From positions 938-64,937 of the forward strand of contig JALOQK010000008.1 in assembly GCA_025453395.1 (NCBI GenBank): DNA of 64,000 nucleotides, read 5' to 3'. The stretch's first letter is position 1. Every line of letters starts with the position of its first letter. The translations under genes were made by a program, and so were the position numbers. The notes beneath the pieces were generated by a model. That model did not search any database, was not told where the DNA came from, and saw only the letters and a list, made by a program, of their open reading frames with translations. Below are positions 331 to 50,094 of the stretch, piece by piece. The DNA is from Candidatus Omnitrophota bacterium. GTDB taxonomy: Bacteria; Omnitrophota; Gorgyraeia; Gygaellales; Profunditerraquicolaceae.

Positions 331-361
331 AACAAAAAAACGCCCCGTAAGTTACAGGGCG
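331..361 (-). terminator. Rho-independent terminator downstream of pilC, separating it from the rRNA leader
   Basis: Hairpin cgccccgtaagttacagggcg (7 bp stem, 1 mismatch) followed on the minus strand by a U7 tract (rc of aaaaaaa at 334-340). Confidence 0.45.
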
Positions 362-537
362 CTTGATTTTACGCCTTAACTTAAGTTAAAATTAAATTTC
401 AGATGATTTTGTCAATATCGCTTTTATTTATTCTCACGATATATTTGACCCGTGAAGATTTTAAATATACATCTTGCAGGGTAAGTAAATATAACAGAAC
501 ATGCTTTAATTGTCAAGAAATTTTTTTTATTTTTTTC

Positions 538-1743
538 TTACCTGTTTATCATCTCCGTAAGCTGGAATATCGGCATAAACAAAGCCACTACTATGCCTCC
601 TATAATCCCGCCTAAGAATACAATGACTAAAGGCTCTATCATGCTTGTAAGCCCTGATACCGCAACATCAACCTGCTCATCATAAAAATCAGCGATCTTA
701 GAAAGCATCTTTTCCAACTGCCCTGTTTGCTCTCCTACGCTTATCATGCGGCAGACCATCGCAGGAAAAATCTTACTTTTAGACAAAGGCTTATATATCG
801 GCTCTCCCTCGCGCACCGCGTTGCGGCAATTAAGGATAGTTTCTTCTATGACCTTATTTCCGGAAGTTGACGCTACTATATCTAAAGCATTCAGAACCGG
901 AACGCCGCTTTTCATTAAGGTGGCGAAGGTGCGCGAAAATTTGGCCACTCCTACTTTGCGAAAAAGCTCACCCGCTACCGGCAGCCTTAATTTTTGATAA
1001 TCAATATTATATCTACCGCGGACAGTGGCGGCATAACGTTTAAAAATAAACCCGGCAACAAAAAACCCTCCTATAACAATAGGGAACCATTTCTTGAAAA
1101 TATCGCTTATCCCCACCAATATCCTTGTTGGTAGCGGCAATGTTCCGCCAAGGCTGTCAAATATACCCTTAAAGGTAGGCACTACCTTTATTAATAACAA
1201 GGAAGTAATCGCAAAGGCAACTATTAAAACTACAACCGGATAAATCATACTGGAGCGCACCTTTCGGCTTAAAGAAGCTGCCTTCTCAAGGTAAGAAGCT
1301 AATCTATCCAAAACCTGATCCAACATACCGGAAGTTTCTCCTGCCTTGGCCATACTGACGAAAAGATCAGAAAATATATTAGGGTGTTTTGCCAAGGCAT
1401 CGCAAAAACTCATCCCGCCCTCTATATCCTGCTGCACGCTGGAAACAACATTTCTTAAGACTGGCTGTTCGATTTGTTCTGCCAATATATTTAAAGACTG
1501 CACCAGTGGAATACCTGCGTCAATCATGGTGGCTAATTGCCGAGAAAATATAACAATATCATCTATGCCGACCTTTCCTGTTTTCTTGCGCACAGAAACA
1601 GCTACCTTGGACTGTTCAATAGCTATAACAAACAACTCCTGCTTATGCAGGATTTCGCTTGCTTCGGTCTCGCTCTTGGCCTCAACTATTCCCTTAATGG
1701 TCTGCCCGCTTTTGCCTTTGGCAATATAATTAAAGGACAACAT
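538..1743 (-). CDS. pilC: Type IV pilus assembly / T2SS platform protein PilC (GspF family)
   Basis: 401 aa. Two GspF repeats with three TM segments. N-terminus MLSFNYIAKGKSGQTIKG...ASEILHKQEL is typical of PilC. Adjacent to PilB genes. Confidence 0.9.
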   Translation of the reverse strand: MLSFNYIAKGKSGQTIKGIVEAKSETEASEILHKQELFVIAIEQSKVAVSVRKKTGKVGIDDIVIFSRQLATMIDAGIPLVQSLNILAEQIEQPVLRNVVSSVQQDIEGGMSFCDALAKHPNIFSDLFVSMAKAGETSGMLDQVLDRLASYLEKAASLSRKVRSSMIYPVVVLIVAFAITSLLLIKVVPTFKGIFDSLGGTLPLPTRILVGISDIFKKWFPIVIGGFFVAGFIFKRYAATVRGRYNIDYQKLRLPVAGELFRKVGVAKFSRTFATLMKSGVPVLNALDIVASTSGNKVIEETILNCRNAVREGEPIYKPLSKSKIFPAMVCRMISVGEQTGQLEKMLSKIADFYDEQVDVAVSGLTSMIEPLVIVFLGGIIGGIVVALFMPIFQLTEMINR

Positions 1744-1762: not shown

Positions 1763-2824
1763 TTATTCCAAATTCTCCACAATATTCAGAAATGCGCTTA
1801 CTACCTGAGGATCGAATTGAATACCGCTGTTATTTTTTATTTCTGAAACAGCTTCTTCTTTTGTCAGAGGAACCTTACGGTACGAACGCGGCGAACGCAT
1901 AGCCTCGTAGGAGTCCGCCAGATTAATGATCCTTGAGCCCAAACAAATCTCTTCCCTCTTAAGCCCCTTCGGATAGCCAGACCCGTCATAATGTTCATGG
2001 TGTTGGCGGATAAGCTCAATAACTTCTTTCAAGAAAGTAAGCGGCTCTAAGATCTGCGCGGCGGTTGATGGATGACGGCGCATTTCCTGCCATTCTTCGG
2101 GTGTTAATTCCGAAGGCTTAATTAAAATACTATCCTGAATGCCCACTTTTCCTAAATCATGCAGCTCGCATGCCTCTCTTATCATTTCTATTTCCCTGGC
2201 CGGCAATTGCATTTCTTCGGCGATGCTAACCGCGTATTTGGAAACAAGCTGGGAGTGGCTGTGCGTATAATGATCACGAGCGTCTATTACCTGTGCCAGG
2301 ACTTTTATCGTGCGCAAATATGTTGCGCGCAAATCCTCATAAAGATGAGTCAAATTCCGCGCCGAATCTTCTATTCTGCTGGCTAAAAGCGCATTTTGTT
2401 TTTGCAAAGAATTATTTTGTTCCTGAAGATTATGCATGGACTTCCTGTGTGAAACAAGCATGGAATGTAATACAAAAGCCCTCTCAATGGAAAAAGAGGC
2501 TTTCTTATAATCTATGGGATTCTCTATACAATCAAATACCCCTAATGCCTGCAGATCATCCTGGGTAAAATTGACCGGGTTCTGGCTAAAAACTAAAATA
2601 CAGCAATCCGGATCATTCTTCCTTATCTCTTTTAAAAACCAATCAAAAACAGGAATATCCTCATTGACAATCACCACATCAAAAGCGTTATCTTTGAATT
2701 TTTCCAAAGCCAGTCCGATATCGCTTTCAAGATAAACCATCCAGCCTTCCTGATCTTTCTGTTTTTCTTTAAGCCGCGCCATCAAGGAATCGTTATTATC
2801 AACACCTACTACTAATATCTTCAT
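1763..2824 (-). CDS. Response regulator with HD-GYP c-di-GMP phosphodiesterase domain
   Basis: N-terminal CheY-like receiver (MKILVVGVD...). C-terminal HD motif (ELHDLGKVGI) and HHEHYDGSGYPKGL GYP motif. Confidence 0.85.
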   Translation of the reverse strand: MKILVVGVDNNDSLMARLKEKQKDQEGWMVYLESDIGLALEKFKDNAFDVVIVNEDIPVFDWFLKEIRKNDPDCCILVFSQNPVNFTQDDLQALGVFDCIENPIDYKKASFSIERAFVLHSMLVSHRKSMHNLQEQNNSLQKQNALLASRIEDSARNLTHLYEDLRATYLRTIKVLAQVIDARDHYTHSHSQLVSKYAVSIAEEMQLPAREIEMIREACELHDLGKVGIQDSILIKPSELTPEEWQEMRRHPSTAAQILEPLTFLKEVIELIRQHHEHYDGSGYPKGLKREEICLGSRIINLADSYEAMRSPRSYRKVPLTKEEAVSEIKNNSGIQFDPQVVSAFLNIVENLE

Positions 2825-2834
2825 TTTTTGTATC

Positions 2835-4550
2835 CTATTCCTCAGTAGTGATCCTGACCGCCTCTTCCAAAGAAGTAACCCCGTCTCTTACTTTTATAAA
2901 AGCATCATCTCGGAGGGTAAGCATCCCACAATTTTTTATGCAATAATCTTTGATTTCATCAATAGAGCGCTTTTTGGTAATCATCTCTCTTATCTTATCA
3001 TCAATAAGAGAAGTCTCCAGGATTGCTATTCTACCATAAAAACCCGTGTCATTACAATACTTACACCCATAGGAATTATACACCGGCATTCTTTCATCAA
3101 GGCCTAAGTTGCGCAAAACATCTTTGGGCACATCTATCTGTTTGCGGCACTTAAGACACAGTTTTCTGCACAGTCTCTGAGCGCACAACATCACCAGGCT
3201 TGATGAGACTAAAAACGGCTCAACCCCCATATCCAAAAGGCGGCTTATGCTTGATATCGCATCGTTTGTATGCAGCGTTGATAAAACAAGCTGTCCTGTA
3301 AGAGCGGCCTTAATGGCAATATCCGCGGTTTCAAAATCGCGGATCTCCCCGATCATGATTACATCCGGGCTCTGCCTTAATATCGCGCGCAATCCCGAAG
3401 CAAAATCAAGTTTAATCTCATGCCTGACCTGCACCTGCGTGATGCCTTCAATCTGATACTCTACGGGATCCTCAACTGTTACAATATTTTTCTCAGGGGT
3501 ATTTAACTGGTTTAAAACGGAATATAAAGTCGTGGATTTTCCTGAACCCGTGGGGCCGGTAACTAAGATCATGCCAAAAGGCTTGGCAATGGCTTGCTTA
3601 AAAACCTGGGTCGGCCTCTCTGAGAATCCAAGCTTATCCAAACCTATGGAAAGATTGGTCTTATCAAGCGCGCGCAAAACAAATTTTTGCCCGAAAGTAG
3701 TAGGCAGGCTTGAAACACGAAAATCTACTTCCCTGTTTTCAAAACGCACCTTGAACCTGCCATCTTGAGGGATACGGCTTTCGGTAATATCAAGATTCGA
3801 TATAATCTTAAGCCGCGCCAAGACCGCGTTCTGGTTATTCCGAGGGATTTTAAACGCCTCCAATAAAGACCCGTCTATGCGGTAACGCACTCTCAAGCAA
3901 TCGTATTCCGGCTCTAAATGAATGTCTGAAGCCCTGCGGCGCAATGCTTCGCTGAGCATTAAATCCACCATTTTGACAATCGGCGGCTTCTGGCTGTCTT
4001 TAACCGCGCTTGATAATTCTATCTGCTCGCTTCCGATCATCTCTACTGAGTCTTTGGCGTCTTGCGACATGGCTTCGCCAACAGTTTCATTAAAGATATT
4101 CTGGAAACTGGCGGGCTTAGGGGCATAATGAGCGTCGATGGCGTGGACAATTTCTTCTCTGGGGCTTAAGACTATATCAATATCACAACCAGTGCATGAT
4201 TTTAAATCATCCAAGGCAAAAACATTTAACGGATCGGCAATGGCCACGGTCAGGGTATTGCCTATGCGCGACAATGGGACAATCAAAGACTGCCTGGCCA
4301 TATGTTCAGGTATCAACTGTACAATATTAGGGTCAAATTTATATTTAGCTAAATGAAGCGTAGGCACATAAAGGTGCTGTGAAAAAACCGCCAATAGATC
4401 CTCTTCTGAAATAAATCCCTCGTCGATTAAGACTTTACGCAAAGAAGCCTGTTTTGTTTTCTGAATAGCCAAGGCCTTATCCAATTGCTCTTGGCTTAAA
4501 AGCTTGTTGGTAAGTAAAATATTGATAATATTATCTTTCAGCGTGGGCAT
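2835..4550 (-). CDS. pilB: Type IV pilus assembly ATPase PilB (GspE family) with MshEN-type N-domain
   Basis: 571 aa. T2SSE_N domain with both 24-aa MshEN motifs (LLSQEQLDKALAIQ / SLRKVLIDEGFISEEDLLAVFSQ). Walker A GPTGSGKST, Asp and His boxes, C-terminal tetracysteine CxxC...CxxC. Confidence 0.9.
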   Translation of the reverse strand: MPTLKDNIINILLTNKLLSQEQLDKALAIQKTKQASLRKVLIDEGFISEEDLLAVFSQHLYVPTLHLAKYKFDPNIVQLIPEHMARQSLIVPLSRIGNTLTVAIADPLNVFALDDLKSCTGCDIDIVLSPREEIVHAIDAHYAPKPASFQNIFNETVGEAMSQDAKDSVEMIGSEQIELSSAVKDSQKPPIVKMVDLMLSEALRRRASDIHLEPEYDCLRVRYRIDGSLLEAFKIPRNNQNAVLARLKIISNLDITESRIPQDGRFKVRFENREVDFRVSSLPTTFGQKFVLRALDKTNLSIGLDKLGFSERPTQVFKQAIAKPFGMILVTGPTGSGKSTTLYSVLNQLNTPEKNIVTVEDPVEYQIEGITQVQVRHEIKLDFASGLRAILRQSPDVIMIGEIRDFETADIAIKAALTGQLVLSTLHTNDAISSISRLLDMGVEPFLVSSSLVMLCAQRLCRKLCLKCRKQIDVPKDVLRNLGLDERMPVYNSYGCKYCNDTGFYGRIAILETSLIDDKIREMITKKRSIDEIKDYCIKNCGMLTLRDDAFIKVRDGVTSLEEAVRITTEE

Positions 4551-4554: not shown

Positions 4555-6261
4555 TTATTCGTCAGCTACGGTAACCCTGACAACCTCTTCAATAGTAGTA
4601 AGCCCTCTTAGGGCTGAGTCTATGCCTTCTTCGCGTAAAGTCCTCATCCCCTCTTTCCTGGCTTGATCTTTAATCTGATATTCTTGAGCATGAGAAAGGA
4701 TCATATCCCGTATTTTAACGCTTAAGATAATGACTTCCGCGATAGCAACTCTGCCGCTATAACCAGTATTAAAACATAACGGACATTTCTTGGGGCGGTA
4801 AAATTCACTTTTACTTTTATCTAATTTTAATGCCTCTGCTATTTCCGGGCTTAATGTATATTTTTCTTTACAGTTGGAACAGATCTTACGCACCAACCTT
4901 TGCGCCACAATACCCACCACCGCCGAATTAATCAAGAATGGCTCTACTCCCATATTGATCAGGCGCACAATTGATCCAGCCGCAGTAGTAGTATGCAAAG
5001 TAGAAATAACCAAGTGCCCGGTCAAGGCGCTTTTTATGGCGATGTCCACTGTCTCATAATCACGGATCTCGCCGATCATGATAATGTTAGGGTCTTGCCT
5101 GAGGATTGCGCGCAGGGAACTGGCGAAAGTAAGGCCAATGTCGGGCTTAATGGTCACCTGATTTATCCCATCGAGCTGAAACTCAACCGGATCCTCAACA
5201 GTAACAATGTTTTTATGCGGATCATCCACAAATTTAAGTATGGAATAAAGAGTGGTAGTTTTTCCGCTTCCCGTGGGCCCGGTGACCAAAAACATTCCAT
5301 GCGGCATCTTTGAAGCTTGTTGGATCTTAGTAACATTATTATCAGAAAATCCCAATTTTGCTAAATCCAAGTTGGCTTGGGATTTATCAAGGATACGCAA
5401 TGCCACTTTCTCGCCAAAGCTTGAAGGAATAATGGAAACACGAAAATCTATTTCTCTTCCTGATATGCGCGCCTTAAAACGTCCATCCTGCGGCAGGCGG
5501 TGCTCAGCGATATTAAGATCTGACATGACCTTAACGCGTGAGACTATGGAAGCATGCATGTTAGCCGGGGGCGACTGTTGTTCCTGAAGAACACCGTCAA
5601 TACGAAAACGGACGCGCATTTTCTTGTCCCAAGGCTCGATCAAAATATCTGAAGATTTCTTCTTAACAGCGTCTTCAAGGATAAGATTGGTTACTCTTAT
5701 AACCGGCACTTCGCGGCTGACCCGGGTTAACTCCTGTTCGCTGGGTTGGTTTTCTTTCTCCTCTTTAATAAGTTCAATCCCGGGGACATTTATCTCCTTG
5801 ACCAAATCCTCCATCTCGTCTTTTGTAACATTGGGATAATACAGCTCTATAGCGGCAATAATATCCTGCATCCCGGAAATAATAGGATTAATATTATACC
5901 CGGTCAGGGATTTTACATGGTCAATAGCAAAAATATTCAAAGGATCAACCATAGCCAAAGTAATAGTCTGGCCTATTTTAGAAACGGCTATGATCTGATA
6001 ATGACGGGCGATTTCTACGGGGATTATTCTAGCTGTAGCGGGATCGATCTTAAAACGTTTTAAATCAATAAGCGGCAGGCCCAACCCCTGGCTTAGGATA
6101 GAAACCAAATCCTGTTCCTTGATAAAACCTAAAGAGACAACAATATCGCTTAAGCGGCCTGCCTTTTCCTTCTGGATAGCAATAGCCTTATCCAATTGCT
6201 CGGAAGACAAAAGCTTACTATTAACCAACACTTCTTTAAGACGGTCCTTTAAGGAAAGCAT
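4555..6261 (-). CDS. Second PilB/GspE-family ATPase (tandem paralog) with MshEN-type N-domain
   Basis: 568 aa. MshEN motifs (LKEVLVNSKLLSSEQLDKAIAIQ / RLSDIVVSLGFIKEQDLVSILSQ). Walker A GPTGSGKTT. C-terminal CSNCK...CPLCFNTG zinc motif. Confidence 0.9.
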   Translation of the reverse strand: MLSLKDRLKEVLVNSKLLSSEQLDKAIAIQKEKAGRLSDIVVSLGFIKEQDLVSILSQGLGLPLIDLKRFKIDPATARIIPVEIARHYQIIAVSKIGQTITLAMVDPLNIFAIDHVKSLTGYNINPIISGMQDIIAAIELYYPNVTKDEMEDLVKEINVPGIELIKEEKENQPSEQELTRVSREVPVIRVTNLILEDAVKKKSSDILIEPWDKKMRVRFRIDGVLQEQQSPPANMHASIVSRVKVMSDLNIAEHRLPQDGRFKARISGREIDFRVSIIPSSFGEKVALRILDKSQANLDLAKLGFSDNNVTKIQQASKMPHGMFLVTGPTGSGKTTTLYSILKFVDDPHKNIVTVEDPVEFQLDGINQVTIKPDIGLTFASSLRAILRQDPNIIMIGEIRDYETVDIAIKSALTGHLVISTLHTTTAAGSIVRLINMGVEPFLINSAVVGIVAQRLVRKICSNCKEKYTLSPEIAEALKLDKSKSEFYRPKKCPLCFNTGYSGRVAIAEVIILSVKIRDMILSHAQEYQIKDQARKEGMRTLREEGIDSALRGLTTIEEVVRVTVADE

Positions 6262-6293: not shown

Positions 6294-6737
6294 TTATTCA
6301 CTGTAATATTTGGAAATGGCCTGTTTTATATCTGAAGAAGTAGAAACAAAGGTCTGGATATTGCATCCGGTCAGCATTTCCACATCCTCGATAGCGTGGA
6401 CATTCAAAGGATTAGACATGGCTAAGGTCAAATTATTGCCTATTTTGTCTATCGGGATAAGCACGTATTGCTTGGCAACCCGGCACGGAACAATATTGGC
6501 TACATCAGAGCTTATTTCATAATTACCAAGCGGCAAATACGGAAAACCATACTGCGCGGTTAAGGATTGGGCGATATCTTCTTCCTTGGCAAACCCCAGC
6601 TCCACCATGATCTCTCCGATAAGGCCGCCTCTTTCTTTCTGGCAGTTCAACGCCTTATCAAGCTGGTCTGCGGATACAAGCCCGCGGTCCACCAACAATT
6701 CACCTAATTGCTTATTAATTATTCTTTTTATCGGCAT
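6294..6737 (-). CDS. Stand-alone MshEN (T2SSE_N) domain protein, putative c-di-GMP receptor
   Basis: 147 aa. Both tandem 24-residue MshEN motifs with a 5-aa spacer: QLGELLVDRGLVSADQLDKALNCQ-KERGG-LIGEIMVELGFAKEEDIAQSLTAQ. No ATPase domain. Confidence 0.75.
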   Translation of the reverse strand: MPIKRIINKQLGELLVDRGLVSADQLDKALNCQKERGGLIGEIMVELGFAKEEDIAQSLTAQYGFPYLPLGNYEISSDVANIVPCRVAKQYVLIPIDKIGNNLTLAMSNPLNVHAIEDVEMLTGCNIQTFVSTSSDIKQAISKYYSE

Positions 6738-6740: not shown

Positions 6741-8162
6741 CTAAATAGAAATCCTATTTCCCCCTTGGGCCTTGGCCATTTTTAAAGATTCCCTTGCCTT
6801 TAAGAAAAGCTCATCCGAGCTTACTCCGTCAATGGGGTTTTCGCTTACCGCCCCGCTTATAGTCAGATGCATATCTTGCGCTTGGGGATTACCTAAGGAA
6901 ACTTCTACCTTCTTTCTTACTTCTTCAGCCATGCGTATGGAAGCGCGCTTATTCTTATCTTGAAGCACTACAGCGAATTCGTTATCGCCTGTGCGCGCCG
7001 CGCGGTCAGACTCTGAAATAAAATCCCGGATTATGTTGGCTGTTTTCTTCAAAGCCGCTTCCGTCTGCAAAGCCCCTAATTTATGGCTATAATTCTGAAA
7101 ATTATCTATATTAAATATAACTAAAGAACACGGTTTCTGATAAACAATAGCCCTTTTGATTTCTTCTTGAAGACGGCTTTTAATAAAACTTTCATTATAC
7201 AAGCCGGTAAGGTTGTCTTTAATCTCAAGCTCATCCACCCAACCGGAAAGCATATCATTTTCAACCGCGATAGAAAGCTGCTTGGCAAAAATATCCAGTA
7301 ATTCCACATCTTCTTCATGATAACAAAAATCTTCCCTGTTATTTCCAATTACAAGAATACTGCTTAACGAACCTCTGACAAAAATCGGCAGGCTTAAAAA
7401 ATTCTTCAGCCTAAATCTTTCATAAATAAGTTCGCGGTCTTTTTCCTGGATATAATTGGCTTTATCTACTGTAAGCGGCCTTGTTAAATTGGAGATTTTC
7501 GGAAAAATATCATCGCCCTTGATTACTTTTACCTTAGAAAGATACTGGGCATTAGCTCCATCAACAGCCTTCATGAAAAAATCACCATTGTCGGACTCAC
7601 GCGACAAAATAAAAGCAACATCAGAGTTTGCCAAGGTGCGGGCTTTCTGCACCGAAAGAAGCAATATCTCTTCAAGCTTTAAACCTTGCGAAACAAGCGA
7701 ACTTATCTGAAGAAGGCTGGAAAGCACAAGCACTCTTTTCTGTATTTCCAGATTTATCTTGGTAGTTCTTTCGCTATATCCCTTAAGCTCATCCATATTG
7801 CTGCGGATCTTAGAAGTAAGCTGATTTAAAGCATCCCCCAGGTATCCTACTTCATCACCTTTGCTGGTCTTAACGATATGCTGAAAATCCCCCTTGGCGA
7901 TAATCCGGGCTTGAGCGCTTATTGAAGAAACTCTGTCAAAGACCTCTTTAATGATAAAAAACCCCGTAACAGCTACAATAACACTTATTGTCAATACCCA
8001 CATAATCTGTGGACTTACCGTTAAATTGGTGCTAGGAAGAAAATAATTCATAATAACATAACCTAACACCAAAAAAGGCAATACAAGCATAAGATAAAAG
8101 ACCATCCTCAGCTTGTATTTAAGATTGCCCGGACTTAAAAGGACATTTATCTGTTTATTCAT
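6741..8162 (-). CDS. Membrane sensor with HAMP-GAF and a degenerate GGDEF domain
   Basis: 473 aa. Two N-terminal TM helices and a HAMP-like linker. GGDEF-fold C-terminus in which GG(D/E)EF is replaced by GDNEF (RAARTGDNEFAVVL) and the upstream DxD by NIDNF. Confidence 0.8.
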   Translation of the reverse strand: MNKQINVLLSPGNLKYKLRMVFYLMLVLPFLVLGYVIMNYFLPSTNLTVSPQIMWVLTISVIVAVTGFFIIKEVFDRVSSISAQARIIAKGDFQHIVKTSKGDEVGYLGDALNQLTSKIRSNMDELKGYSERTTKINLEIQKRVLVLSSLLQISSLVSQGLKLEEILLLSVQKARTLANSDVAFILSRESDNGDFFMKAVDGANAQYLSKVKVIKGDDIFPKISNLTRPLTVDKANYIQEKDRELIYERFRLKNFLSLPIFVRGSLSSILVIGNNREDFCYHEEDVELLDIFAKQLSIAVENDMLSGWVDELEIKDNLTGLYNESFIKSRLQEEIKRAIVYQKPCSLVIFNIDNFQNYSHKLGALQTEAALKKTANIIRDFISESDRAARTGDNEFAVVLQDKNKRASIRMAEEVRKKVEVSLGNPQAQDMHLTISGAVSENPIDGVSSDELFLKARESLKMAKAQGGNRISI

Positions 8163-8188: not shown

Positions 8189-8217
8189 ATTATACCTTGT
8201 ATCTTATTATATTGCAA
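8189..8217 (-). promoter_or_regulatory. Sigma70-type promoter for the GGDEF-like gene
   Basis: Minus strand reads TTGCAA-N17-TATAAT (rc of 8212-8217 and 8189-8194), about 25 nt upstream of the ATG at 8162. Confidence 0.4.
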
Positions 8218-8223: not shown

Positions 8224-9909
8224 TTAGAAATTGGCGCATTCCTGTGCCAAAGATTCCTTAGGAATGCCTGTATCAATGAAATCCCAAGGCAGCCTATCTT
8301 CTATTTTGCCTGCCAACAGGTAGTCTTGCGGGTTGATTCCAGAGCTAATAAAAGCATCCTGCCAAAGCTTAAAATTAAACTGGTCGTCCCAGGCCTGAAA
8401 ACGCCCGCCCTGGCTAAAGACATGTTCAATGACCCCGCCTAAACGCCTATCGCCTCTGGAGAATACCGCCTCAATGAAACTCATATGCGGATCATGAAAA
8501 TTAAGCCTTAAACTTTTGTGCTTAGAGGCTTTATCTCTTAGGATCTTTTGCTTAGCAAACATCGCCTCTATGTTATCCATAGCCTGCCACTGAAAACAGG
8601 TATGCGGCTTGGGGATCATCGTATTAACGCTTATATTTATCTGCGCCCGGGGCAAACCGATTTTTCTTCTTAATTCAGAAACCTTTACCGAAAAATCAAT
8701 TATGCCCTCTAAATCCTCTTGCGTTTCAGAAGGCACCCCTGACATAAAATATAATTTTACCCTCTGATAACCTGCCGAATACGCTTTTTCCATGGCATCA
8801 AAGAAAACATCCTCATCAAATTCTTTATTCAGCACCCGGCGCAGCCTTTGGCTGCCTGCTTCAGGGGCAAAAGTAAGCCCGGTCTTTTTCACCTTAGAAA
8901 GAATTCCCGCGATATCGCCGGTTAAGTCTTTGGGTTTTATGGAAGGAAGCGACACGCTTACTGCCTTTTGGCTAAAACAAGCGAATAAATCTTTGAGTAA
9001 TAAATCTACCCGCGGATAGTCGCTGACGCAAAGCCCGGCCAAAGAAATATCCTCATACCCGGTAGAAGAATATATTTCCTGCGCCGTAGAGATAAGTTTG
9101 TCTTTGCTTCTAAAACGCAAAGGATGATAAATTCTATTGGCCTGGCAGAAACGGCACTTATAAGGGCAGCCGCGCATTACCTCAAGCATCATGCGGTCAT
9201 GGATAATCTCGATATAAGGCACAAGCCACTTCACAGGGAAAAAGCTACTGTCCAGATCCTTGATAAAACGCTTTTTTATCTTCTTGGCCGGCAAAGAAGG
9301 CACATAAACGCCTTCTATATGGGAAAACTCTTTAAGCAATTCTTCTTTAAGCAGACTGCCTGATTTATAATCATCTTTGAGCCTTGCATAAAGCCCCACT
9401 ATCTCCGGGAGGGCCTCTTCAGCTTCCCCAATAAGAAAAAGATCAAAGAAATCACGCATCGGTTCAGGGTTAAAACAACAAACACCCCCTGCGATGACAA
9501 GGGGAAAATCTTTATTGCGCTCTACAGATCTCAAAGGGATATTGCCTAAATCAAGCATGCCCAGCACATTCACATAACCCAATTCATATCCTAAAGAAAA
9601 CCCCGCGAAATCAAAATCTTTAAGCGGCCGGGCTTCTTCAAGAGAAGAAAACAAGAGGTTATTCGCGCGCAAAATTTGCTCCATATCCGCAGCAGGGGCA
9701 AAAAACCTTTGGCAGCAAACCCCATCCAGCTGATTTAACAAGCCATAAATTATCCTGATACCTAAATTACTCATCCCAACTTCATACAAATCCGGGAAAC
9801 ATAAAGCAAAGTTTACCTTGTTATCCTCAAATTTCTTTGAGGAAACATTCCATTCTCCCCCGGTATAACGCGCCGGCTTTCTTACCTGTAATAAATAATC
9901 TTCAGTCAT
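8224..9909 (-). CDS. Radical SAM protein, TIGR03960-like (B12-binding-like N-domain plus radical SAM core)
   Basis: 561 aa. CxxxCxxC cluster in EVMRGCPYKCRFCQA. N-terminus MTEDYLLQVRKPARYTGGEW typical of the family. Sits upstream of rodA as in many genomes. Confidence 0.8.
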   Translation of the reverse strand: MTEDYLLQVRKPARYTGGEWNVSSKKFEDNKVNFALCFPDLYEVGMSNLGIRIIYGLLNQLDGVCCQRFFAPAADMEQILRANNLLFSSLEEARPLKDFDFAGFSLGYELGYVNVLGMLDLGNIPLRSVERNKDFPLVIAGGVCCFNPEPMRDFFDLFLIGEAEEALPEIVGLYARLKDDYKSGSLLKEELLKEFSHIEGVYVPSLPAKKIKKRFIKDLDSSFFPVKWLVPYIEIIHDRMMLEVMRGCPYKCRFCQANRIYHPLRFRSKDKLISTAQEIYSSTGYEDISLAGLCVSDYPRVDLLLKDLFACFSQKAVSVSLPSIKPKDLTGDIAGILSKVKKTGLTFAPEAGSQRLRRVLNKEFDEDVFFDAMEKAYSAGYQRVKLYFMSGVPSETQEDLEGIIDFSVKVSELRRKIGLPRAQINISVNTMIPKPHTCFQWQAMDNIEAMFAKQKILRDKASKHKSLRLNFHDPHMSFIEAVFSRGDRRLGGVIEHVFSQGGRFQAWDDQFNFKLWQDAFISSGINPQDYLLAGKIEDRLPWDFIDTGIPKESLAQECANF

Positions 9910-10019: not shown

Positions 10020-11117
10020 TTAAAACACTGTCCTGGTCTTCTCAATATTGGCCAGTATTCCCAAAGATATAAATGTCACCAAGATTGAGGAACCCCCGTA
10101 ACTCATTAATGGCAACGGCACTCCCACCACAGGGACAAGCCCTATATTCATGGCGATATTAATCAATACCTGCAAGCCTAACATAAAGGTAACCCCAAAA
10201 GCAAGAAGCTTACCGAAATAATCACTTGTAGATAAAGCGATGCGTATGCCCTTTTTTAGTATTAATGAATACAGGAACAATAAAACCAATACCCCCACAA
10301 GCCCCCATTCTTCAGAGAAAGTGGCAAAAATAAAATCTGTATGCGCTTCGGGCAAGAAATGCAGCTGGCTTTGCGTGCCGGCAAGCCATCCTTTTCCCAA
10401 AAATCCTCCTGAGCCAATGGCTATCTTAGATTGTATCACTGTATAGCCGGCGCCCAAGGGATCAATGTTGGGATTCAGAAAAACAAGGATCCTATTCTTC
10501 TGATAATCCTTAAGCATCTGCCATAAAATAGGCGCGCAAAGCAAAGATAATAAGAACAGCCCTGCATAGTAACGGATTTTTACCCCGGCCATAAAACTTA
10601 CTGCCAAAAAAACAAATATTACTAATAATCCTGTGCCCAAATCCGGCTGTTTGATAATAATTACAGCGGGGATCATCACTAAAAAAAATGGCAGGATAAA
10701 AGCTCGCAGGATCCCGTATTTATACGCGCCCCATGTGGTATCCATCTTGCTTTGAGTAAAATATCGCGCGATAGACATAACCATTATAATCTTGGCGAAT
10801 TCCGAAGGCTGGAAACTGAAAATTCCGATCCTTAACCATCTTTGCGCGCCAAGCCGAACACTGCCTAACGCCAAAACTAATAGAAGAATAATAAATATAG
10901 CAAAATAGAAAAGATAAGAAACACCCCAAAGATTCCGGTAATTAATGCTGGATATTACCCAGAATAATAACACCCCTAAGAAAACCCAGAGTATTTGACG
11001 TTGATAAATAAACTGCCAACTTTCTGCCTCTTTTTGATAAGTGCTGCTGTATATAGAAAGCACTCCGCAAGCGGTTATCAAAATAGCAATAAAAAGAATT
11101 GAGAGTCTGCTTTTCAT
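10020..11117 (-). CDS. rodA: Rod shape-determining SEDS glycosyltransferase RodA
   Basis: 365 aa polytopic membrane protein of the FtsW/RodA family, immediately downstream of mrdA and the mreBCD genes. Confidence 0.9.
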   Translation of the reverse strand: MKSRLSILFIAILITACGVLSIYSSTYQKEAESWQFIYQRQILWVFLGVLLFWVISSINYRNLWGVSYLFYFAIFIILLLVLALGSVRLGAQRWLRIGIFSFQPSEFAKIIMVMSIARYFTQSKMDTTWGAYKYGILRAFILPFFLVMIPAVIIIKQPDLGTGLLVIFVFLAVSFMAGVKIRYYAGLFLLSLLCAPILWQMLKDYQKNRILVFLNPNIDPLGAGYTVIQSKIAIGSGGFLGKGWLAGTQSQLHFLPEAHTDFIFATFSEEWGLVGVLVLLFLYSLILKKGIRIALSTSDYFGKLLAFGVTFMLGLQVLINIAMNIGLVPVVGVPLPLMSYGGSSILVTFISLGILANIEKTRTVF

Positions 11118-12835
11118 ATAAGCCCTTCCTCAAACATGCGCGTAATAATTTCTTTCGCTATTAAGCAGGCATAATAGCCTGCCTTGCCGTTTTCCAAGAA
11201 AACACAAACAGCAAATTTAGGGCGATCAGATGGGAAAAAACCGGCAAACCATCCGTGCGCAAAAGATCCAGTTACCTGCGCGGAACCTGTTTTGCCTGAT
11301 ACCTTAACTGGCAAATCCGCCAAAATACTGGCTGTACCAGCTGGATCTGATACGGCCTTACGCATGCCATCACTTATGTAATTAACTATCTCTTGCTTGG
11401 AAATAACTTTTATTTTCTTGCCAGAATGCCCCCCTGCGTTATATCCAGCGGCATATTTAGTAACATGCGGAACAACCAAAAAACCACCATTAGCAAAACA
11501 GGCAGTAACTCTTAGTATTTGTATAGGCGTGGTCAATAAATCACCCTGGCCAATAGAAAAATTGGCCGTATCCCCATCATACCATTTTTGATCCCGGCTT
11601 GATTTCTTCCAGGCTACTGATGGCACAAACCCGGATACCTCATATGGAAGATCTATCCCTGTGGTTTTTGCCAAACCAAATCTCAGAGAATAATCTGTTA
11701 TTAGTTGCGGGCCCAAGGCTAAGCCTGTATGATAAAAAAATACATCGCAGGAACCGGCTATGGCCTGTATTAAATCTTGACGGTTATGCGTATCCCAGCA
11801 CTTAAACTGCCGCCTGCCTATTGTTAGAAATCCAGGGCAAATAAAAGAAGTCCCGAGATTTATTTTCTTTTTTTCCAGGCCCGCAACAGCCACAATTAAC
11901 TTAAATATAGAACCAGGCGCATACGAAGCGCTTATCGCGCGATTCAAAAAAGGCGAATGCTTGTCGTTTAAAACCTCTTCAATAGAAGAAGAGCCTTTGA
12001 TAAAAATACCCGGGTCAAAATCCGGGAAACTTGCTAACGCCAGGATTTCCCCTGTATCAGGCTGCATAATAATAACCGCGCCTTTTTGGTTTTGCATCGC
12101 CTGTTGGACGATTTGCTGGATCTTAATATCTAAGGTTAGGCCCACATCGCCACCATTAACAGCAGGCTTATATCCTATTACTCTGACTAATTTTCCGACA
12201 TGATCTACTTCCGCGGATATCGCCCCATCGCCTTGGCGTAAAATATAATCATATTTTTCTTCTGCCCCGCCAAATCCCACAATATCTGCCGGCTTATAAC
12301 CGTAATCGGATAATTTATAAAGCCGCCACTGGTCTATTTGGCTTAGATACCCTAACACATGGCATGCCAGATTGCCATACGGATAATAGCGTAATGGATG
12401 CGGCTGTATGATAATTCCGGGTGAATCAAATTTAGCCTGCTCAAGGGCGATAAGCTTTTTGTTATCAGAAATCGTATCCAAAACAACTGGCAGCGATTCA
12501 GAGATATAACGCGACCTGAATCTCTTCCTAAGCTTCTGCTCATCCTGCTCTAATACAAAGGCGATTTTCCTTAACGCCCTTTCAAGTTCATCTTTATTTT
12601 GCCCTGAAACCATCACATCAAAAGCCAGGTAATTGTCCGCAATAGGATTTCCGTTACGGTCCAAGATCCTTCCTCTTGCGCCTTCTTGAGGCAGAACCCG
12701 GATGCAGTTCTTTTGGCTGAGCAAGCTGAATTTGGCCCCCTGGATTATTGCAAGATTAAAAACCCCAAAGCCCAAAACAACAAAGCTGGCGATAAAAACC
12801 GATATTACAAGTTTTGTCCTGTTCGGATAAGTCAT
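11114..12835 (-). CDS. mrdA: Penicillin-binding protein 2 (elongasome transpeptidase)
   Basis: 573 aa. N-terminal TM. SxxK (SIFK) and KTG (KTGSAQ) motifs. Overlaps mreD and rodA by 4 nt each. Confidence 0.9.
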   Translation of the reverse strand: MTYPNRTKLVISVFIASFVVLGFGVFNLAIIQGAKFSLLSQKNCIRVLPQEGARGRILDRNGNPIADNYLAFDVMVSGQNKDELERALRKIAFVLEQDEQKLRKRFRSRYISESLPVVLDTISDNKKLIALEQAKFDSPGIIIQPHPLRYYPYGNLACHVLGYLSQIDQWRLYKLSDYGYKPADIVGFGGAEEKYDYILRQGDGAISAEVDHVGKLVRVIGYKPAVNGGDVGLTLDIKIQQIVQQAMQNQKGAVIIMQPDTGEILALASFPDFDPGIFIKGSSSIEEVLNDKHSPFLNRAISASYAPGSIFKLIVAVAGLEKKKINLGTSFICPGFLTIGRRQFKCWDTHNRQDLIQAIAGSCDVFFYHTGLALGPQLITDYSLRFGLAKTTGIDLPYEVSGFVPSVAWKKSSRDQKWYDGDTANFSIGQGDLLTTPIQILRVTACFANGGFLVVPHVTKYAAGYNAGGHSGKKIKVISKQEIVNYISDGMRKAVSDPAGTASILADLPVKVSGKTGSAQVTGSFAHGWFAGFFPSDRPKFAVCVFLENGKAGYYACLIAKEIITRMFEEGLI

Positions 12836-13311
12836 TTTATGGATGGATTAATTATATATTCCCAAAGGATATAAGAACCTGCTGCGGAAAAAATAACACC
12901 AACGGCCAATATCCTTAAGAATACACCCCAAGATACGCTTAAGCCGTTTGTCAGCATCAGCCCGTGGATAATCAATGAATAAAACAAAAAACCTGCCGCC
13001 ACCACAGAAATCTTTACAAAGATATTTTCTATTTCTATTTTTCTGGCAACAAAAGAAAATAAAAGGCTGAATACCGGAAATAAAATACAATTTAACCCAA
13101 CCGAACCCGAGATAAAAATATCCTTAGCCAAACCGCAAAACAGGCCGATAATTAAAACCCTCGCGATATTATAACAAAACAATAAACTAAACAACGCGTT
13201 AATCAAAAACAAAAGATCCGGCTTAAGATATAATAACCGCATATCGTTTATAATGCCGGCCTGAAAATACGCGGTTAATAATATAAGCCCCGCTATAAAA
13301 ATACTGCTCAT
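12832..13311 (-). CDS. mreD: Rod shape-determining protein MreD
   Basis: 159 aa polytopic membrane protein between mreC and mrdA. Confidence 0.75.
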   Translation of the reverse strand: MSSIFIAGLILLTAYFQAGIINDMRLLYLKPDLLFLINALFSLLFCYNIARVLIIGLFCGLAKDIFISGSVGLNCILFPVFSLLFSFVARKIEIENIFVKISVVAAGFLFYSLIIHGLMLTNGLSVSWGVFLRILAVGVIFSAAGSYILWEYIINPSIK

Positions 13312-14078
13312 TGCGCAACCACCATTACTTCCTCTGTGTTTGCTAAATCTGAAAAGGGTTTGACAATTGCGTATTTACTTAAGCCTGAGAATTCCTCGCC
13401 TACATAAGTTACCGTGCCAATCATTAAACCTTTAGGGCAGCCTGAGGTTAGCCCGGAGGTAACTATCACATCAGAAACCTGGATGTCCGCATCGCGCGGC
13501 AGATACTTCATATTTAAGCAATTTCCTAACCCGCCACAGATCAAACCTTCCTGACGGCTGCGCATAACTAAAGCAGAAATACTTAAACTAGGATCACTAA
13601 TAAGAAGGACTTTGCTTGTAAAATTACCAGTCTCAACCACCCTGCCCAACAGCCCCTTATAAGACAAAACCGTCATTCCTTTATTGATGCCGCTTGCTTT
13701 TCCTTTATTAATAATAAGGCTTGCTGACCAGTTATCCGGGGAATGCGCGATTACACCCGCCACGCGCACCTTAAATGAAGATTGATCTTTCAGGGAAAGA
13801 AGCTCTCTTAAGCGGGAATTTTCCGCGTCTATTTCATCTATCTTATTTAACATCTGCTTCAGAAGCCCGTTCTCTTCTTCTAATTTAATATTATTTTTAT
13901 AATTACGGTGATAGAAAATAGCGGCCTTTGTTTCATCGGCAAGAAAATTAAACAACGATAACGGCAGGTGTGAAATGTCTAAAGCAATGGGTTTAAGATA
14001 GGAAACGGTTAGAGAACAAACTAAAGCAAAGCCGGCTACTACGAAAGTAAGGGTTAGATTTTTACTGGGTTTAAACAC
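13308..14078 (-). CDS. mreC: Rod shape-determining protein MreC
   Basis: 256 aa. N-terminal TM, coiled coil, C-terminal beta domain. Follows mreB. Confidence 0.85.
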   Translation of the reverse strand: MFKPSKNLTLTFVVAGFALVCSLTVSYLKPIALDISHLPLSLFNFLADETKAAIFYHRNYKNNIKLEEENGLLKQMLNKIDEIDAENSRLRELLSLKDQSSFKVRVAGVIAHSPDNWSASLIINKGKASGINKGMTVLSYKGLLGRVVETGNFTSKVLLISDPSLSISALVMRSRQEGLICGGLGNCLNMKYLPRDADIQVSDVIVTSGLTSGCPKGLMIGTVTYVGEEFSGLSKYAIVKPFSDLANTEEVMVVAQ

Positions 14079-14080
14079 AT

Positions 14081-15154
14081 TTAAGAATGCATCTCAGACT
14101 TTATCGGAACGGTAACTCTCTTGAGGTATTTTATTTCATTAAGCACTTTGCCTGTTCCGTTTGCTACCGCGGTAAGAGGGTCATCGGCAACATGCACCGG
14201 CAGGCCTGTCTCTTCAGAAATTAATTTATCCAAACCTCTTAATAGAGAACCGCCGCCCGCCATCATAATCCCATGCTCAATAAGGTCCGCTGACAATTCC
14301 GGAGGAGTCCTCTCAAGAGAGATCTTAGCAGATTCCACGATTGCCCTTAAGGGCTCTTGCAACGCCTCTCTTATTTCTTCAGAAGTAATGGTGACGGTTT
14401 TAGGCAGGCCCGCGATTAAATCTCTGCCTTTAACCTCAAGGCTCATTTCCTCTTCTAAAGGATAGGCAGAGCCTATTTTTATTTTTATATCTTCAGCAGT
14501 ACGCTCGCCGATCATTAAATTGTAAGTCTTTTTAAGATATTCAATGACCGCCTGATCCATTTCATCTCCGCCAATGCGTATAGAACGGGCAAAGACAATC
14601 CCCGCCAAAGAAATAACCGCGATCTCAGTTGTGCCGCCTCCTATATCTATGATCATATTGCCAATCGGGTCCTGAATCGGCAATCCCACCCCAATAGCCG
14701 CGGCCACAGGCTCTTCAATTAAAAATACTTCCCTGGCGCCAGCGCGCTCAGCTGAATCCTTAACCGCGCGTTTTTCCACTTCCGTAATGCCCGATGGGAT
14801 GGCAATAACAATTCTGGGCCTGACTAAAACCCTGCGATGATGCACCTTCTTAATAAAATACCGCAGCATCGCTTCGGTAATTTCAAAATCCGCAATAACC
14901 CCGTCTTTCATAGGGCGAATGGCGATAATATTGCCCGGGGTCCGGCCTAACATGCGCTTTGCTTCATCCCCTACAGCTAAAACATGGGAAGTCCCGCGCT
15001 CTATAGCTACTACTGAAGGCTCACACAAAACTACGCCTTCTCCTTTAACATAAACCAAAGTAGAGGCGGTGCCTAAGTCTATCCCCATGTCATTAGAGAA
15101 TAAACCTAATATATAATTTATTGTTTTCTTCAGTATCTCAGGGATTTGCGCCAT
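14081..15154 (-). CDS. mreB: Actin-like rod shape-determining protein MreB
   Basis: 357 aa. [18 protein letters not shown] phosphate-1 motif and MreB-type adenosine motif ([15 protein letters not shown]). Confidence 0.95.
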
Positions 15155-42531: not shown

Positions 42532-43440
42532 TTAAGCGAAGAATTTATGACAAGCCAAAATATCTTTTTCTATTTGCCGCTTTAAAGATTGCAGGCTGGA
42601 GAATTTCTTATCATTGCGGATTTTATTCAGGAAAAATACTTCCATGTTCTTGCCGTAGATACTGCGGGAAAAATCAAAAATATGGACTTCAATATGCACT
42701 TTTGGTTTGCAAAATTTTTTATGCAAAGTAGGCCGCGTCCCGATATAAGAAATACCATTGTAAATCTTGCCTTCCAAAAACACCTTAACCGCGTATATGC
42801 CTGAGGCCGGCAATACTTCATGATGCGGATTTAAATTAGCAGTAGGCACGCCTAATCTACGAGCTAAAGCATTTCCTTTTATCACTGTGCCTAAAATGCT
42901 AACCGGCCTTAATAAAAAATGCCTGGCCCTGTTAAGCTTTCCGGTTTTGATAAGCTGGCGGATATAGGTACTGCTGACCGGCTCTCCATTTACTTTAATC
43001 GTATCAAAAACCCTAAGTTTAAATCCGTATTCGCCGGAAAACTTTTTAAGAAACTGCGCGTCTCCTTTGGCATTATGCCCGAAACGAAAATTATTACCTA
43101 CGTATATAAAACTAGGCTTGATGCGCTTAAAAATAATATTTTTGATAAAGCTGTATGCGGAAATAAGAGAAAATGAGGCGGTAAATCTAATTACCACGCA
43201 GACATCAACCCCCAGACAAGCCAATAGATGCAGGCGATGGTCTAAAGAATATAAACTTTGCTTGGCCTTAGGATGAGGATGAAAAGTAACTACAACGCTT
43301 TTTGACCCGATTGACGCCGCCTTGGCACAGGCTTCTTCTAAGATTTTCTGGTGCGCCAGATGCATCCCGTCAAACACGCCAAGAGATAAAACACAAGATT
43401 TTGTGCCGCGGATATCTTTCAGATTATAGATTACGCGCAT
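42532..43440 (-). CDS. ribF: Bifunctional riboflavin kinase / FMN adenylyltransferase
   Basis: 302 aa. N-terminal nucleotidyltransferase (LGVFDGMHLAHQ), C-terminal flavokinase domain. Confidence 0.9.
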   Translation of the reverse strand: MRVIYNLKDIRGTKSCVLSLGVFDGMHLAHQKILEEACAKAASIGSKSVVVTFHPHPKAKQSLYSLDHRLHLLACLGVDVCVVIRFTASFSLISAYSFIKNIIFKRIKPSFIYVGNNFRFGHNAKGDAQFLKKFSGEYGFKLRVFDTIKVNGEPVSSTYIRQLIKTGKLNRARHFLLRPVSILGTVIKGNALARRLGVPTANLNPHHEVLPASGIYAVKVFLEGKIYNGISYIGTRPTLHKKFCKPKVHIEVHIFDFSRSIYGKNMEVFFLNKIRNDKKFSSLQSLKRQIEKDILACHKFFA

Positions 43441-44419
43441 TAACCACCCTGGATGTTTCTTTTATTATATCTTGTTCAATCCTGCCTATACCGCCTTCTA
43501 AAGTACAACCGCTTGCGCACTTATGCCCTCCTCCGCCAAATAAAGAAGCGATCTTATTCACATCAATCTTTCCTTGAGAACGAAAATTCACCCTGACTTT
43601 GCTTCTATCTTCTGGCAGTTTGCGCAATAAAACCGCCGCCTGCACGCCTTTGAGCGCGCGGATATGGCTTAAAATATACTCTGGCAGATCAAAATCGTCT
43701 TTCTTTGATAAGGCTGCCTCCGGAATAACTACCCATGCCAATTTTCCGTTACAGGCGGTTTTTACCTGTGAAATAATCTTTGCCGCTTTTTTAAGCGAAG
43801 ATATCCGGATATCTTCATATATCTTGCGGTAAATCTCAGAAACGCCGATCTTCATAAAAGGCATTAAATCCGCGACCGCCTGATGCGTAAAAGAAGATGT
43901 GGTATTGTACCTAAATGATCCCGTATCAGTCATAATCCCGGTGTAAAGGGCATTTGATGATACGCGGTCAAACTTTATTTTAGATTTCTTAAACAGGCGA
44001 TATACAATTTCAGAACATGAAGAAGCGCCAGCAAGCACCAGATTTACATCTGCGAAATAAGTATTAGAAATATGATGGTCGATATTAAGCACAAAAGCTT
44101 TTTTTGTTTTATTAAGCTGCCAGACCTTGCCGCATCTATCTTCCGAGGAACAATCCACCAGGCAAAAACAATCAAAATTATTTTCCCGCTTAAGATTTCT
44201 TAAAAGCTTTATTTTATTTATCCCCGGCATAAAACTATATTCTTCCGGAGCAGGGTCATCATTCACGATTATAACTTTCTTGCCTAATGCTTTCAAAAGC
44301 TGGGCAATAGCTAATTCCGAACCCAAGGCATCACCCTCCAGATTCTTATGGCTGGTGACTAAAAAACTTTTATGTCCGCGTATACACCTGAGCGCTTTAT
44401 CCATAAATGCTGCCTCCAA
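43424..44419 (-). CDS. nrnA: DHH/DHHA1 phosphoesterase NrnA (nanoRNase / pAp phosphatase)
   Basis: 331 aa. DHH motif (NIDHHISN) and DHHA1 GGGGH motif (LFGGGGHKCASG). Confidence 0.8.
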   Translation of the reverse strand: MEAAFMDKALRCIRGHKSFLVTSHKNLEGDALGSELAIAQLLKALGKKVIIVNDDPAPEEYSFMPGINKIKLLRNLKRENNFDCFCLVDCSSEDRCGKVWQLNKTKKAFVLNIDHHISNTYFADVNLVLAGASSCSEIVYRLFKKSKIKFDRVSSNALYTGIMTDTGSFRYNTTSSFTHQAVADLMPFMKIGVSEIYRKIYEDIRISSLKKAAKIISQVKTACNGKLAWVVIPEAALSKKDDFDLPEYILSHIRALKGVQAAVLLRKLPEDRSKVRVNFRSQGKIDVNKIASLFGGGGHKCASGCTLEGGIGRIEQDIIKETSRVVNARNL

Positions 44420-50021: not shown

Positions 50022-50094
50022 TCGGGGGAGTGGGACTTGAACCCACGGCCTCAGCGTCCCGAACGCTGCGCTCTACCAAGCTGAGCCACCCCCC
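50022..50094 (-). tRNA. tRNA-Pro (anticodon CGG)
   Basis: rc reads CGGGGGGTGGCTCAGCTTGGTAGAGCGCAGCGTTCGGGACGCTGAGGCCGTGGGTTCAAGTCCCACTCCCCCGA. Cloverleaf with a 7-bp acceptor stem, GTTCAAGTC T-loop and anticodon loop TTCGGGA. Confidence 0.9.

Follow-up and report, generated by a model that had tools for sequence, protein, structure and literature searches.

To our knowledge, only two receptor domains for cyclic di-guanosine monophosphate (c-di-GMP) are broadly distributed, MshEN being one of them, and nearly all of the functional work known to us treats the MshEN domain as the cis-regulatory N-terminus of an enzyme. Here we analyse a 64,000-nucleotide (nt) stretch of DNA from a Candidatus Omnitrophota bacterium (positions 938 to 64,937 of contig JALOQK010000008.1, assembly GCA_025453395.1; hereafter the window), in which an open reading frame (ORF) of 147 amino acids (aa) at 6294..6737, on the minus strand, encodes an MshEN domain alone, next to two genes for PilB, the assembly ATPase of type IV pili. 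We propose, with a probability of roughly 0.55 and on the basis of sequence comparisons, that a type IV pilus motor of two PilBs and PilC would have this stand-alone protein as its detached subunit for sensing c-di-GMP.

The N-domain of Vibrio cholerae MshE (VcMshE; structure 5HTL) belongs to the same Pfam family and presents the same two-subdomain fold, with two 24-residue motifs in register with those of the stand-alone protein. In VcMshE the guanines of c-di-GMP are read by the backbone amides of G11/D12 and G40/D41 while two triangular leucine clusters stack; the ribose-phosphate is bound by Q32 and Q61, and G18 and G47 serve the helix turns (PMC5013675). With G11L or G40I, binding of c-di-GMP is no longer detectable (PMC5013675). 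In comparison with VcMshE, the Omnitrophota protein, a putative c-di-GMP binder, is detached from an ATPase and has Gln at Arg9, Leu at Arg38, Ile at Leu39 and Leu54, and Asn at Asp108. PilF of Thermus thermophilus, with the architecture (MshEN)3-T2SSE, is a pilus ATPase system that holds several MshEN domains of which only some bind c-di-GMP. Its GSPII-B domain, with K167 and L196 at the lead positions of the motifs, binds c-di-GMP with a dissociation constant of 6 nM, and reversion to Arg weakens the binding (Neissner et al., PMC11731258); from these results the consensus was extended to (R/K/L)LG, and it was proposed that a hydrophobic lead residue predicts high affinity (PMC11731258). GSPII-B, in which neither motif starts with Arg, shares with the stand-alone protein a Leu at the start of motif II. 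PilF is one polypeptide, whereas here the putative binder is a separate gene and the putative non-binders are carried by two ATPases.

Two further systems are close in one respect each. PA3740 of Pseudomonas aeruginosa is an MshEN-type c-di-GMP-binding protein that has no ATPase domain and is linked to surface motility (Wang 2016, PMC5013675); as far as a comparison by description goes, it differs by a highly diverged N1, by its occurrence in beta- and gamma-proteobacteria and in that no pilB adjacency is described for it. In the PilZ-FimX-PilB system of Xanthomonas and Pseudomonas, a PilB N-domain without the MshE residues receives its c-di-GMP input in trans, through separate proteins docked on it (PMC8389850). 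The proteins involved are unrelated, being a non-binding PilZ adaptor and a degenerate EAL receptor, whereas the trans factor proposed here is a paralog of the PilB N-domain; Pfam gave no PilZ or EAL match in the stand-alone protein, and the likeness is functional only.

The gene of the stand-alone protein has an ATG start and its stop codon lies at 6294-6296; the strand was absent from an earlier, sequence-only reading of the window. That reading described a 147-aa ORF with a T2SSE_N-type domain alone, which is borne out by profile, phmmer and Foldseek matches. Pfam MshEN (PF05157) matched residues 63-146 with an E-value of 2e-18 and 66.6 bits (cut-off 23.1), while the NCBIfam model NF053729 ('c-di-GMP_motif') matched residues 10-62 over all 53 model positions with 62.9 bits (cut-off 38). 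Against PDB sequences, phmmer matched the full length of the protein to PilF GSPII-A and to the N-domains of Geobacter and Myxococcus PilB, and aligned residues 1-133 of VcMshE 5HTL to its residues 1-133. The profile scans detected no further domain beyond MshEN. There is no PF00437 match, that is, no T2SSE ATPase domain; the protein ends at residue 147, and TIGR02538 scores 78 bits against a cut-off of 675, covering only model positions 2-137 of 564. By these sequence measures the stand-alone protein is not a PilB, although several of its homologs bear the JGI label 'type IV pilus assembly protein PilB'. It is 100% identical to the NCBI entry MUF05_06745, a 'hypothetical protein' of a Ca. Omnitrophica metagenome-assembled genome (MAG).

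The protein is divided into a putative c-di-GMP-binding module, an MshEN_N four-helix bundle of 53 residues delimited by translation and NF053729 (6552..6710, minus strand), and an alpha/beta subdomain of the MshEN_C or T2SSE_N1-like type (residues 63-147; 6297..6551, minus strand), delimited by the Pfam match and the predicted sheet and helices. In the numbering of the query, the module is made of motif I (residues 10-33), the spacer KERGG (34-38) and motif II (39-62), and the string QLGELLVDRGLVSADQLDKALNCQ/KERGG/LIGEIMVELGFAKEEDIAQSLTAQ quoted earlier for it is the exact translation of 6552-6710 on the minus strand. AlphaFold2, run with a 40-sequence family alignment, yielded five models, only one of them confident, with a predicted local distance difference test (pLDDT) value of 86 compared to 64-68 for the other four. 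This model presents helices at residues 3-17, 23-36, 40-46 and 52-63, after which come a sheet of three strands and further helices, and Foldseek superposes it on 5HTL, its top match, with an E-value of 3e-11 and a template-modelling (TM) score of 0.71-0.74. The sequence thresholds together with the two-subdomain fold place the protein in the MshEN family.

We compared the motif residues with those of VcMshE; positions of the query equal those of VcMshE plus one, and residue counts are given in VcMshE numbering. The alignment is in register over residues 1-133 and the key Gly, Leu and Gln positions are kept, namely G11, G18, G40, G47, L10, L25, L29, L58, Q32 and Q61. Four changes from VcMshE to the query, Arg9 to Gln10, Arg38 to Leu39, Leu39 to Ile40 and Leu54 to Ile55, are fixed across the family. 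In the orthologs of the 86 loci compared, L10, G11, L25, L58 and Q61 are invariant (86/86 each), and G40 (85/86), Q32 (83/86), G47 (83/86) and G18 (74/86) follow. The consensus (R/K/L)LGxx(L/V/I)(L/V/I)xxG(L/V/I)(L/V/I)xxxxLxxxLxxQ, in two copies with a 5-residue spacer, is followed exactly in spacing and register, with all the Gly and Gln positions and most of the hydrophobic positions matched. The deviations are the Q leading motif I, outside R/K/L, the start of motif II as L-I-G, the Ile in place of Leu54, and two core residues of the window protein, M and A; they are fixed in the family except for the M, which is L in most members. A near-invariant Lys-Gln precedes the LG of motif I, Leu is invariant at the start of motif II, and the orthologs share the start and the N-terminus MPI[KR][KR]IINKQLG. 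Thus, of the former description of two MshE-type 24-residue motifs with a canonical 5-residue spacer, register and spacing stand, whereas 'canonical' has to give way to near-canonical, both lead arginines being replaced and Leu39 and Leu54 being Ile. By analogy, the lead-arginine replacements (Q and L) are not disqualifying for binding, because GSPII-B binds at 6 nM with K167 and L196 in these places.

The two ATPases of the locus, reported earlier as lying next to the ORF, are both real, each combining MshEN and T2SSE matches (E-values of 1e-131 to 1e-138). PilB-a (568 aa; 4555..6261, minus strand) is a type IV pilus assembly ATPase with a Pfam T2SSE match of E 5e-138, an MshEN match and 619 bits with TIGR02538; its paralog PilB-b (571 aa; 2835..4550, minus strand) has a T2SSE match of E 3e-131 and also MshEN. 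They are 45% identical to each other, and both show full-length T2SSE matches, a Walker A motif (GPTGSGKT/ST) and Cys-X2-Cys pairs. The stand-alone protein is 33-42% identical to their N-domains. PilB-a of the window has its own complete N-domain, in which G11 is replaced by K, G18 by K and G40 by S, and Q61 is displaced. The motif of PilB-b is more strongly degenerate, with R9 to N, G11 to I, G18 to K, R38 to S and G40 to R. The same losses are found throughout the orthologs. In PilB-a, none of 80 sequences has Gly at G11 (T/I/K/R/Q instead), G40 is Ser in 80/80, G18 and G47 are mostly Lys and Q61 is shifted by one residue; in PilB-b, Gly is found in 0/72 at G11 (I/L/V/A/M/T) and in 0/72 at G40 (Arg/Lys in 70, Ser in one), and R38 is mostly Pro. 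A second Omnitrophota clade gives 0/117 Gly at G11 and 0/117 at G40 in the PilB-a orthologs. Considering the VcMshE point mutants, both PilBs would have lost c-di-GMP binding, which we infer at the level of the residues.

PilB-a and PilB-b evidently keep the fold although both glycines, G11 and G40, are gone; that only the stand-alone protein holds them invariant speaks for contact with a ligand and not for a need of the fold. This invariance, and with it that of Q32 and Q61, is hard to explain by another reading, which we consider possible though unlikely. The protein could be a c-di-GMP-independent structural or adaptor subunit whose MshEN_C subdomain connects PilB hexamers with one another or with PilC or PilM-like platform proteins, and whose helical bundle is conserved for folding and contacts with no ligand. 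The N1 domains of GspE-type ATPases are indeed protein-docking modules, and in Foldseek the AlphaFold2 model matches the PilB(N)-PilZ complexes 7LKM and 7LKO, the GspE-GspL and EpsE-EpsL complexes being matched very weakly, with E-values above the significance threshold. Such an adaptor would also suit the higher conservation of the C-subdomain (0.79, see below), the fact that the motif is no guarantee of binding, as GSPII-A illustrates, and the several distant loci that have no adjacent gene for a c-di-GMP enzyme; in the close family, the HD-GYP and GGDEF-type genes that flank the gene speak for a link to the nucleotide instead.

The stand-alone gene is widely distributed. The 120 best database homologs have 147-215 aa, nearly all of them 147-152, and most are 72-83% identical to the query, with a few entries of 213-215 aa at 62-63%; those that are named come nearly all from Omnitrophota. 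When one genome per GTDB species was scanned with peptide patterns specific to the family, at least 553 matches in the species-representative genomes were confirmed and, as up to two patterns may match one locus, this corresponds to at least a few hundred species; the protein is 70-83% identical across these Omnitrophota genomes. By similarity and synteny, the best 80 loci are all from Omnitrophota MAGs or single-amplified genomes, some of the records carrying other labels. Many loci, L010-L012, L018 and L053 among them, stand in records titled 'uncultured Planctomycetales bacterium' and one in a 'Margulisiibacteriota' record; in view of the identical synteny and of 70-78% identity, these records probably belong to mislabelled Omnitrophota MAGs.

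Wherever the contig is long enough, the order RodA-RadSAM-GGDEF-MshEN-PilBa-PilBb-HDGYP-PilC (RadSAM being a radical-SAM protein) is essentially invariant among the 86 loci. The MshEN ORF is separate in each of them, with 146-168 aa (mode 149), and its distance to pilB-a ranges from -4 to 219 nt with many stop/start overlaps. Across Omnitrophota the gene runs in the same direction as PilB-a, PilB-b and PilC and is often coupled to them in translation. A conserved genomic association with PilBs that lack c-di-GMP residues of their own is thus found in 86/86 loci, as well as in the distant loci and the PilB-a fusion described below. For 34 species in which all the genes are complete, the mean pairwise identity of the stand-alone protein is 0.74 for the N- and 0.79 for the C-subdomain, compared to 0.74-0.79 for the PilB ATPase cores, 0.69 for PilC, 0.66 for RodA, 0.59 for the HD-GYP protein and 0.47-0.61 for the GGDEF protein.

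A gene conserved like the ATPase cores is neither a pseudogene nor a mis-called ORF. The idea that a third pilB was disrupted and that its 5' part is decaying here, which the homology to PilB N-termini and the location in a pilB array might suggest, was rejected and has in our view a negligible chance of being right. Only 32 nt separate the MshEN stop codon from the start of the intact PilB-a, which has an N-domain of its own, and this gap leaves no room for ATPase remnants; furthermore, the length is constant in 86/86 loci, strong purifying selection is seen over hundreds of species, and start and stop are conserved.

The separate arrangement extends to distant loci, where homologs at 41-51% identity (L087, L089 and L096) retain the core MshEN-PilB-PilB-PilC between unrelated flanks. 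Among 1.84 billion cluster representatives, searched exhaustively, there were many proteins of about 150 aa with this single domain, at 40-60% identity, some of which are contig-end fragments (P0264); short matches (up to 220 aa) were not counted as stand-alone, and only loci with verified context were used. Locus L087 (45% identity to the query) has the order RodA-MshEN-PilB-PilB-HDGYP-PilC-pilin, with no GGDEF and no RadSAM; L089 (51%) has a receiver-domain (REC) gene first, in the order REC-MshEN-PilB-PilB-PilC, with no HD-GYP; and L096 reads MshEN-PilB-PilB-PilC-PilS-PilR. In L093 (40%), two tandem stand-alone MshEN genes of 149 and 153 aa with xLG/LLG motifs (110-1037) precede a PilB with a degenerate motif. 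The contigs of L092 and L093 are short and present the stand-alone ORF or ORFs, then at least one PilB-like gene, then the contig end. In L087, L089, L096 and L093 the stand-alone protein has the pattern xLG...Q/LLG...Q and the glycines are replaced in the PilB genes. PilC always comes after both PilBs, distant loci included, in the contigs that reach that far.

Separate in 86/86 loci, the domain is fused to the ATPase in one small clade, the only exception among orthologous loci. Three fusion proteins (P0131, P0330 and P0331; 754-767 aa, 66-84% identical to one another, one annotated as Ca. Omnitrophota) begin with an MshEN domain, which a low-complexity stretch of about 45 aa links to a PilB-a ortholog that has a degenerate MshEN itself. 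Their N-terminal MshEN has both glycines and is 41% identical to the stand-alone protein versus 34-35% to either PilB N-domain, while the ATPase part is 49% identical to PilB-a versus 44% to PilB-b; the following genes are a PilB-b ortholog and PilC. These (MshEN)2-T2SSE ATPases are a fused equivalent of the module, joined covalently by the linker, whereas the phylum as a rule has the split form. By the Rosetta-stone argument, the rare fusion to a PilB-a ortholog supports a functional link of the stand-alone MshEN protein to the motor, and among the sequence evidence it is the strongest indication that the protein may work on or with PilB-a.

The fusion also bears on the idea of a decoy or inhibitor, which we regard as improbable, where the free MshEN would compete with the PilB N-domains for their docking site or cap the ATPase, and pilus extension would be down-regulated or timed as by the small PilB inhibitor CpiA, with or without control by c-di-GMP. 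An N-terminal fusion to a PilB-a ortholog fits an integral positive subunit better. The conservation at the level of the ATPase cores and the frequent start/stop overlap with pilB-a likewise suggest stoichiometric co-production. In favour of a decoy are the 33-42% identity to the N-domains with which it would compete and the precedent of small trans-acting regulators of PilB (PMC11656802).

Taken as a c-di-GMP-sensing subunit, the stand-alone protein could act as follows (query numbering). The N-terminal four-helix bundle would clamp one c-di-GMP between both 24-residue motifs, the guanines being read by the backbone amides of G12/E13 and G41/E42 and stacked on by the clusters L26/L30/I40 and L11/I55/L59, while Q33 and Q62 would hold the ribose-phosphate and L39 and K9/Q10 would cap the bases. 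The conserved alpha/beta subdomain MshEN_C, the likely surface for protein-protein contact, would dock on PilB-a, perhaps on PilB-b or PilC. The co-encoded HD-GYP enzyme may set the c-di-GMP occupancy locally, and the occupancy would turn the assembly of pili on or off in trans, like the cis-linked MshEN in MshE and in PilB elsewhere. In several systems the ATPase rate is unchanged by c-di-GMP binding (PMC11656802). The trans-acting regulator or adaptor of the motor that the sequence-only reading had suggested gains in plausibility from the alignment in register, the exclusion of a fragment, the synteny, the fusion and the glycine loss in the PilBs.

Several observations weigh against a sensing role. 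The Q leading motif I lies outside even the extended published consensus (R/K/L), and L39 and L54 are Ile. GSPII-A of PilF stayed non-binding after its consensus was restored, the motif being necessary and not sufficient (PMC12002112), and it is on this domain that the AlphaFold2 model superposes best (TM 0.87 in Foldseek). Helix alpha-1 of GSPII-A is locked by an N-cap (T5/D8) and an I6-L116 contact (PMC12002112); the stand-alone protein has I6 and, with I116, likewise a hydrophobic residue at 116, and R5 and N8 where the N-cap residues would be. NF053729 scores PilB-a at 48.5 and PilB-b at 43.9 bits, both over the cut-off of 38 in spite of their replaced glycines. Only three sequences represent the rare fused form, and in their motif I the L10 position is occupied by Thr. 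Finally, the cluster has a single GGDEF protein, whose catalytic site is degenerate, and the 64-kb window shows no active cyclase.

The order of transcription in the window, all on the minus strand, is mreB-mreC-mreD-PBP2-rodA, radical-SAM, GGDEF, MshEN, PilB-a, PilB-b, HD-GYP, PilC. Upstream of the MshEN gene, an accessory HAMP-GAF-GGDEF protein found by Pfam (6741..8162, minus strand) lacks the RxxD inhibitory site (I-site) and has TGDNEF as its degenerate active site; the tallied orthologs are likewise degenerate there (GDNEF, GDDEF, GGNEF, SDDEF, ANNEF and others). Only in the close family is it conserved beside the MshEN gene. From these sequences it is probably not a cyclase, and it was rejected as a local source of c-di-GMP. 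Downstream of PilB-b, the second accessory gene (1763..2824, minus strand; Pfam HD_5, E 8e-39) encodes a pseudo-receiver and an HD-GYP domain, a putative c-di-GMP phosphodiesterase. Its HD and GYP motifs are kept in 56/56 orthologs, while the N-terminal REC-like match is under the Pfam cut-off with the phospho-acceptor position apparently Asn, hence the pseudo-receiver. The module ends with PilC (538..1743, minus strand), the platform protein with two T2SSF repeats (Pfam T2SSF, E 3e-66; NCBIfam PilC, 422 bits).

Considering that only 3 nt separate the GGDEF stop codon from the MshEN start codon and that GGDEF and MshEN are adjacent in about 80 of the 86 close loci, the partners of the stand-alone protein might be the c-di-GMP enzymes rather than the motor, the protein regulating or scaffolding the HD-GYP and degenerate GGDEF proteins or sequestering the nucleotide. 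We give this little credence. GGDEF and HD-GYP are dispensable in the deeper lineages, whereas PilB-PilB-PilC is kept in every contig that reaches that far, and the partner in the fusions is PilB-a. As obligate partners of the stand-alone MshEN, the two enzymes were rejected on the ground of the deeper lineages without them.

With two PilB paralogs and a single PilC, a more speculative role, which we think doubtful, may be considered: the free MshEN might be a shared and exchangeable 'key' that, when loaded with c-di-GMP, chooses which PilB engages PilC. The level of the second messenger would then switch between two motor states, either two pilus functions or extension versus an alternative PilB-driven mode. 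Such a motor selection would be undescribed for type IV pili and would be a trait of the whole phylum Omnitrophota, whose members are ultra-small and possibly host-dependent.

A free-standing MshEN architecture is in itself not new, as a Nitrospirota example shows. This is a 209-aa MshEN-only protein (L094/L095, 7001-7630) located away from pilB, with a small TPR gene adjacent and a PilZ gene near. What is new is the combination of a sensor split off phylum-wide, complementary residue loss in tandem PilBs and a fused counterpart in one clade. The MshEN catalogue lists fusions to ATPases, glycosyltransferases, REC, HD-GYP, CheA and others, as well as PA3740 and (MshEN_N)2 (Wang et al., PMC5013675); a plain single MshEN protein is absent from Supplementary Table 4 of Wang 2016 (PMC5013675). 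Full-text literature searches found no description of a stand-alone MshEN or T2SSE_N partner of PilB, a paper on cyanobacterial EbsA being a false lead, and no such partner is mentioned in the 2024 review of PilB cofactors (PMC11656802). At about 48% identity we also observed MshEN fused to a PilZ domain or a DnaA-type ATPase domain (P0161, P0179 and P0167), architectures not seen in the 2016 catalogue; the fusion to PilZ unites two different receptor domains for c-di-GMP in a single protein.

The locus can be regarded as a natural split MshEN, with a very strongly conserved separate protein that would be competent for sensing, copies on the ATPases that would not be, and the rare fused form as internal control. 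If the sensing role is true, this would be a clean system for the effect of MshEN on the PilB hexamer, a new class among PilB cofactors and a first handle on the control of pili by c-di-GMP in uncultured Omnitrophota. As for annotation, several hundred database entries of the family bear the name 'hypothetical protein' or, incorrectly, 'PilB'.

Upstream of the pilus and c-di-GMP module lie, on the same strand by Pfam and NCBIfam scans, a radical-SAM protein (Radical_SAM_N2; 8224-9909) and mreB, mreC, mreD, PBP2 and rodA (10020-15154). In the close family these genes always precede the module, and such a linkage of elongasome (cell-shape) genes with pilus motor genes is unusual in being fixed. 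A promoter-like site, TTGCAA-17-TATAAT (8189..8217, minus strand), in the gap before the GGDEF gene may mark the start of an operon, on weak evidence, and a strong terminator-like hairpin with a 12-bp stem and a T-run after pilC (338..364, minus strand) its possible end; in the promoter scan, promoter-like sites in the region were not above shuffle expectation, and the operon boundaries are only suggestive. Among the scanned ORFs there is no PilT or pilin gene in the window, and none downstream of pilC. At Rfam gathering thresholds the window has no c-di-GMP riboswitch, the sole match being one tRNA (50022-50095, minus strand).

The scanned ORFs of 20225-63990 are of the housekeeping type (IleRS, FtsA, MraW, RibF, LigA, riboflavin genes, RodZ, FtsK, PNPase), of which IleRS, FtsA and MraW suggest a dcw-type cell-division cluster; a XerC/D-like tyrosine recombinase lies at 45636-46523. 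Enzymes of the DHH/DHHA1 NrnA-like type can degrade pGpG and nanoRNAs. One such DHH/DHHA1 protein (NrnA-like) is encoded at 43424-44419 on the minus strand, unlinked to the cluster, and may be relevant to c-di-GMP turnover.

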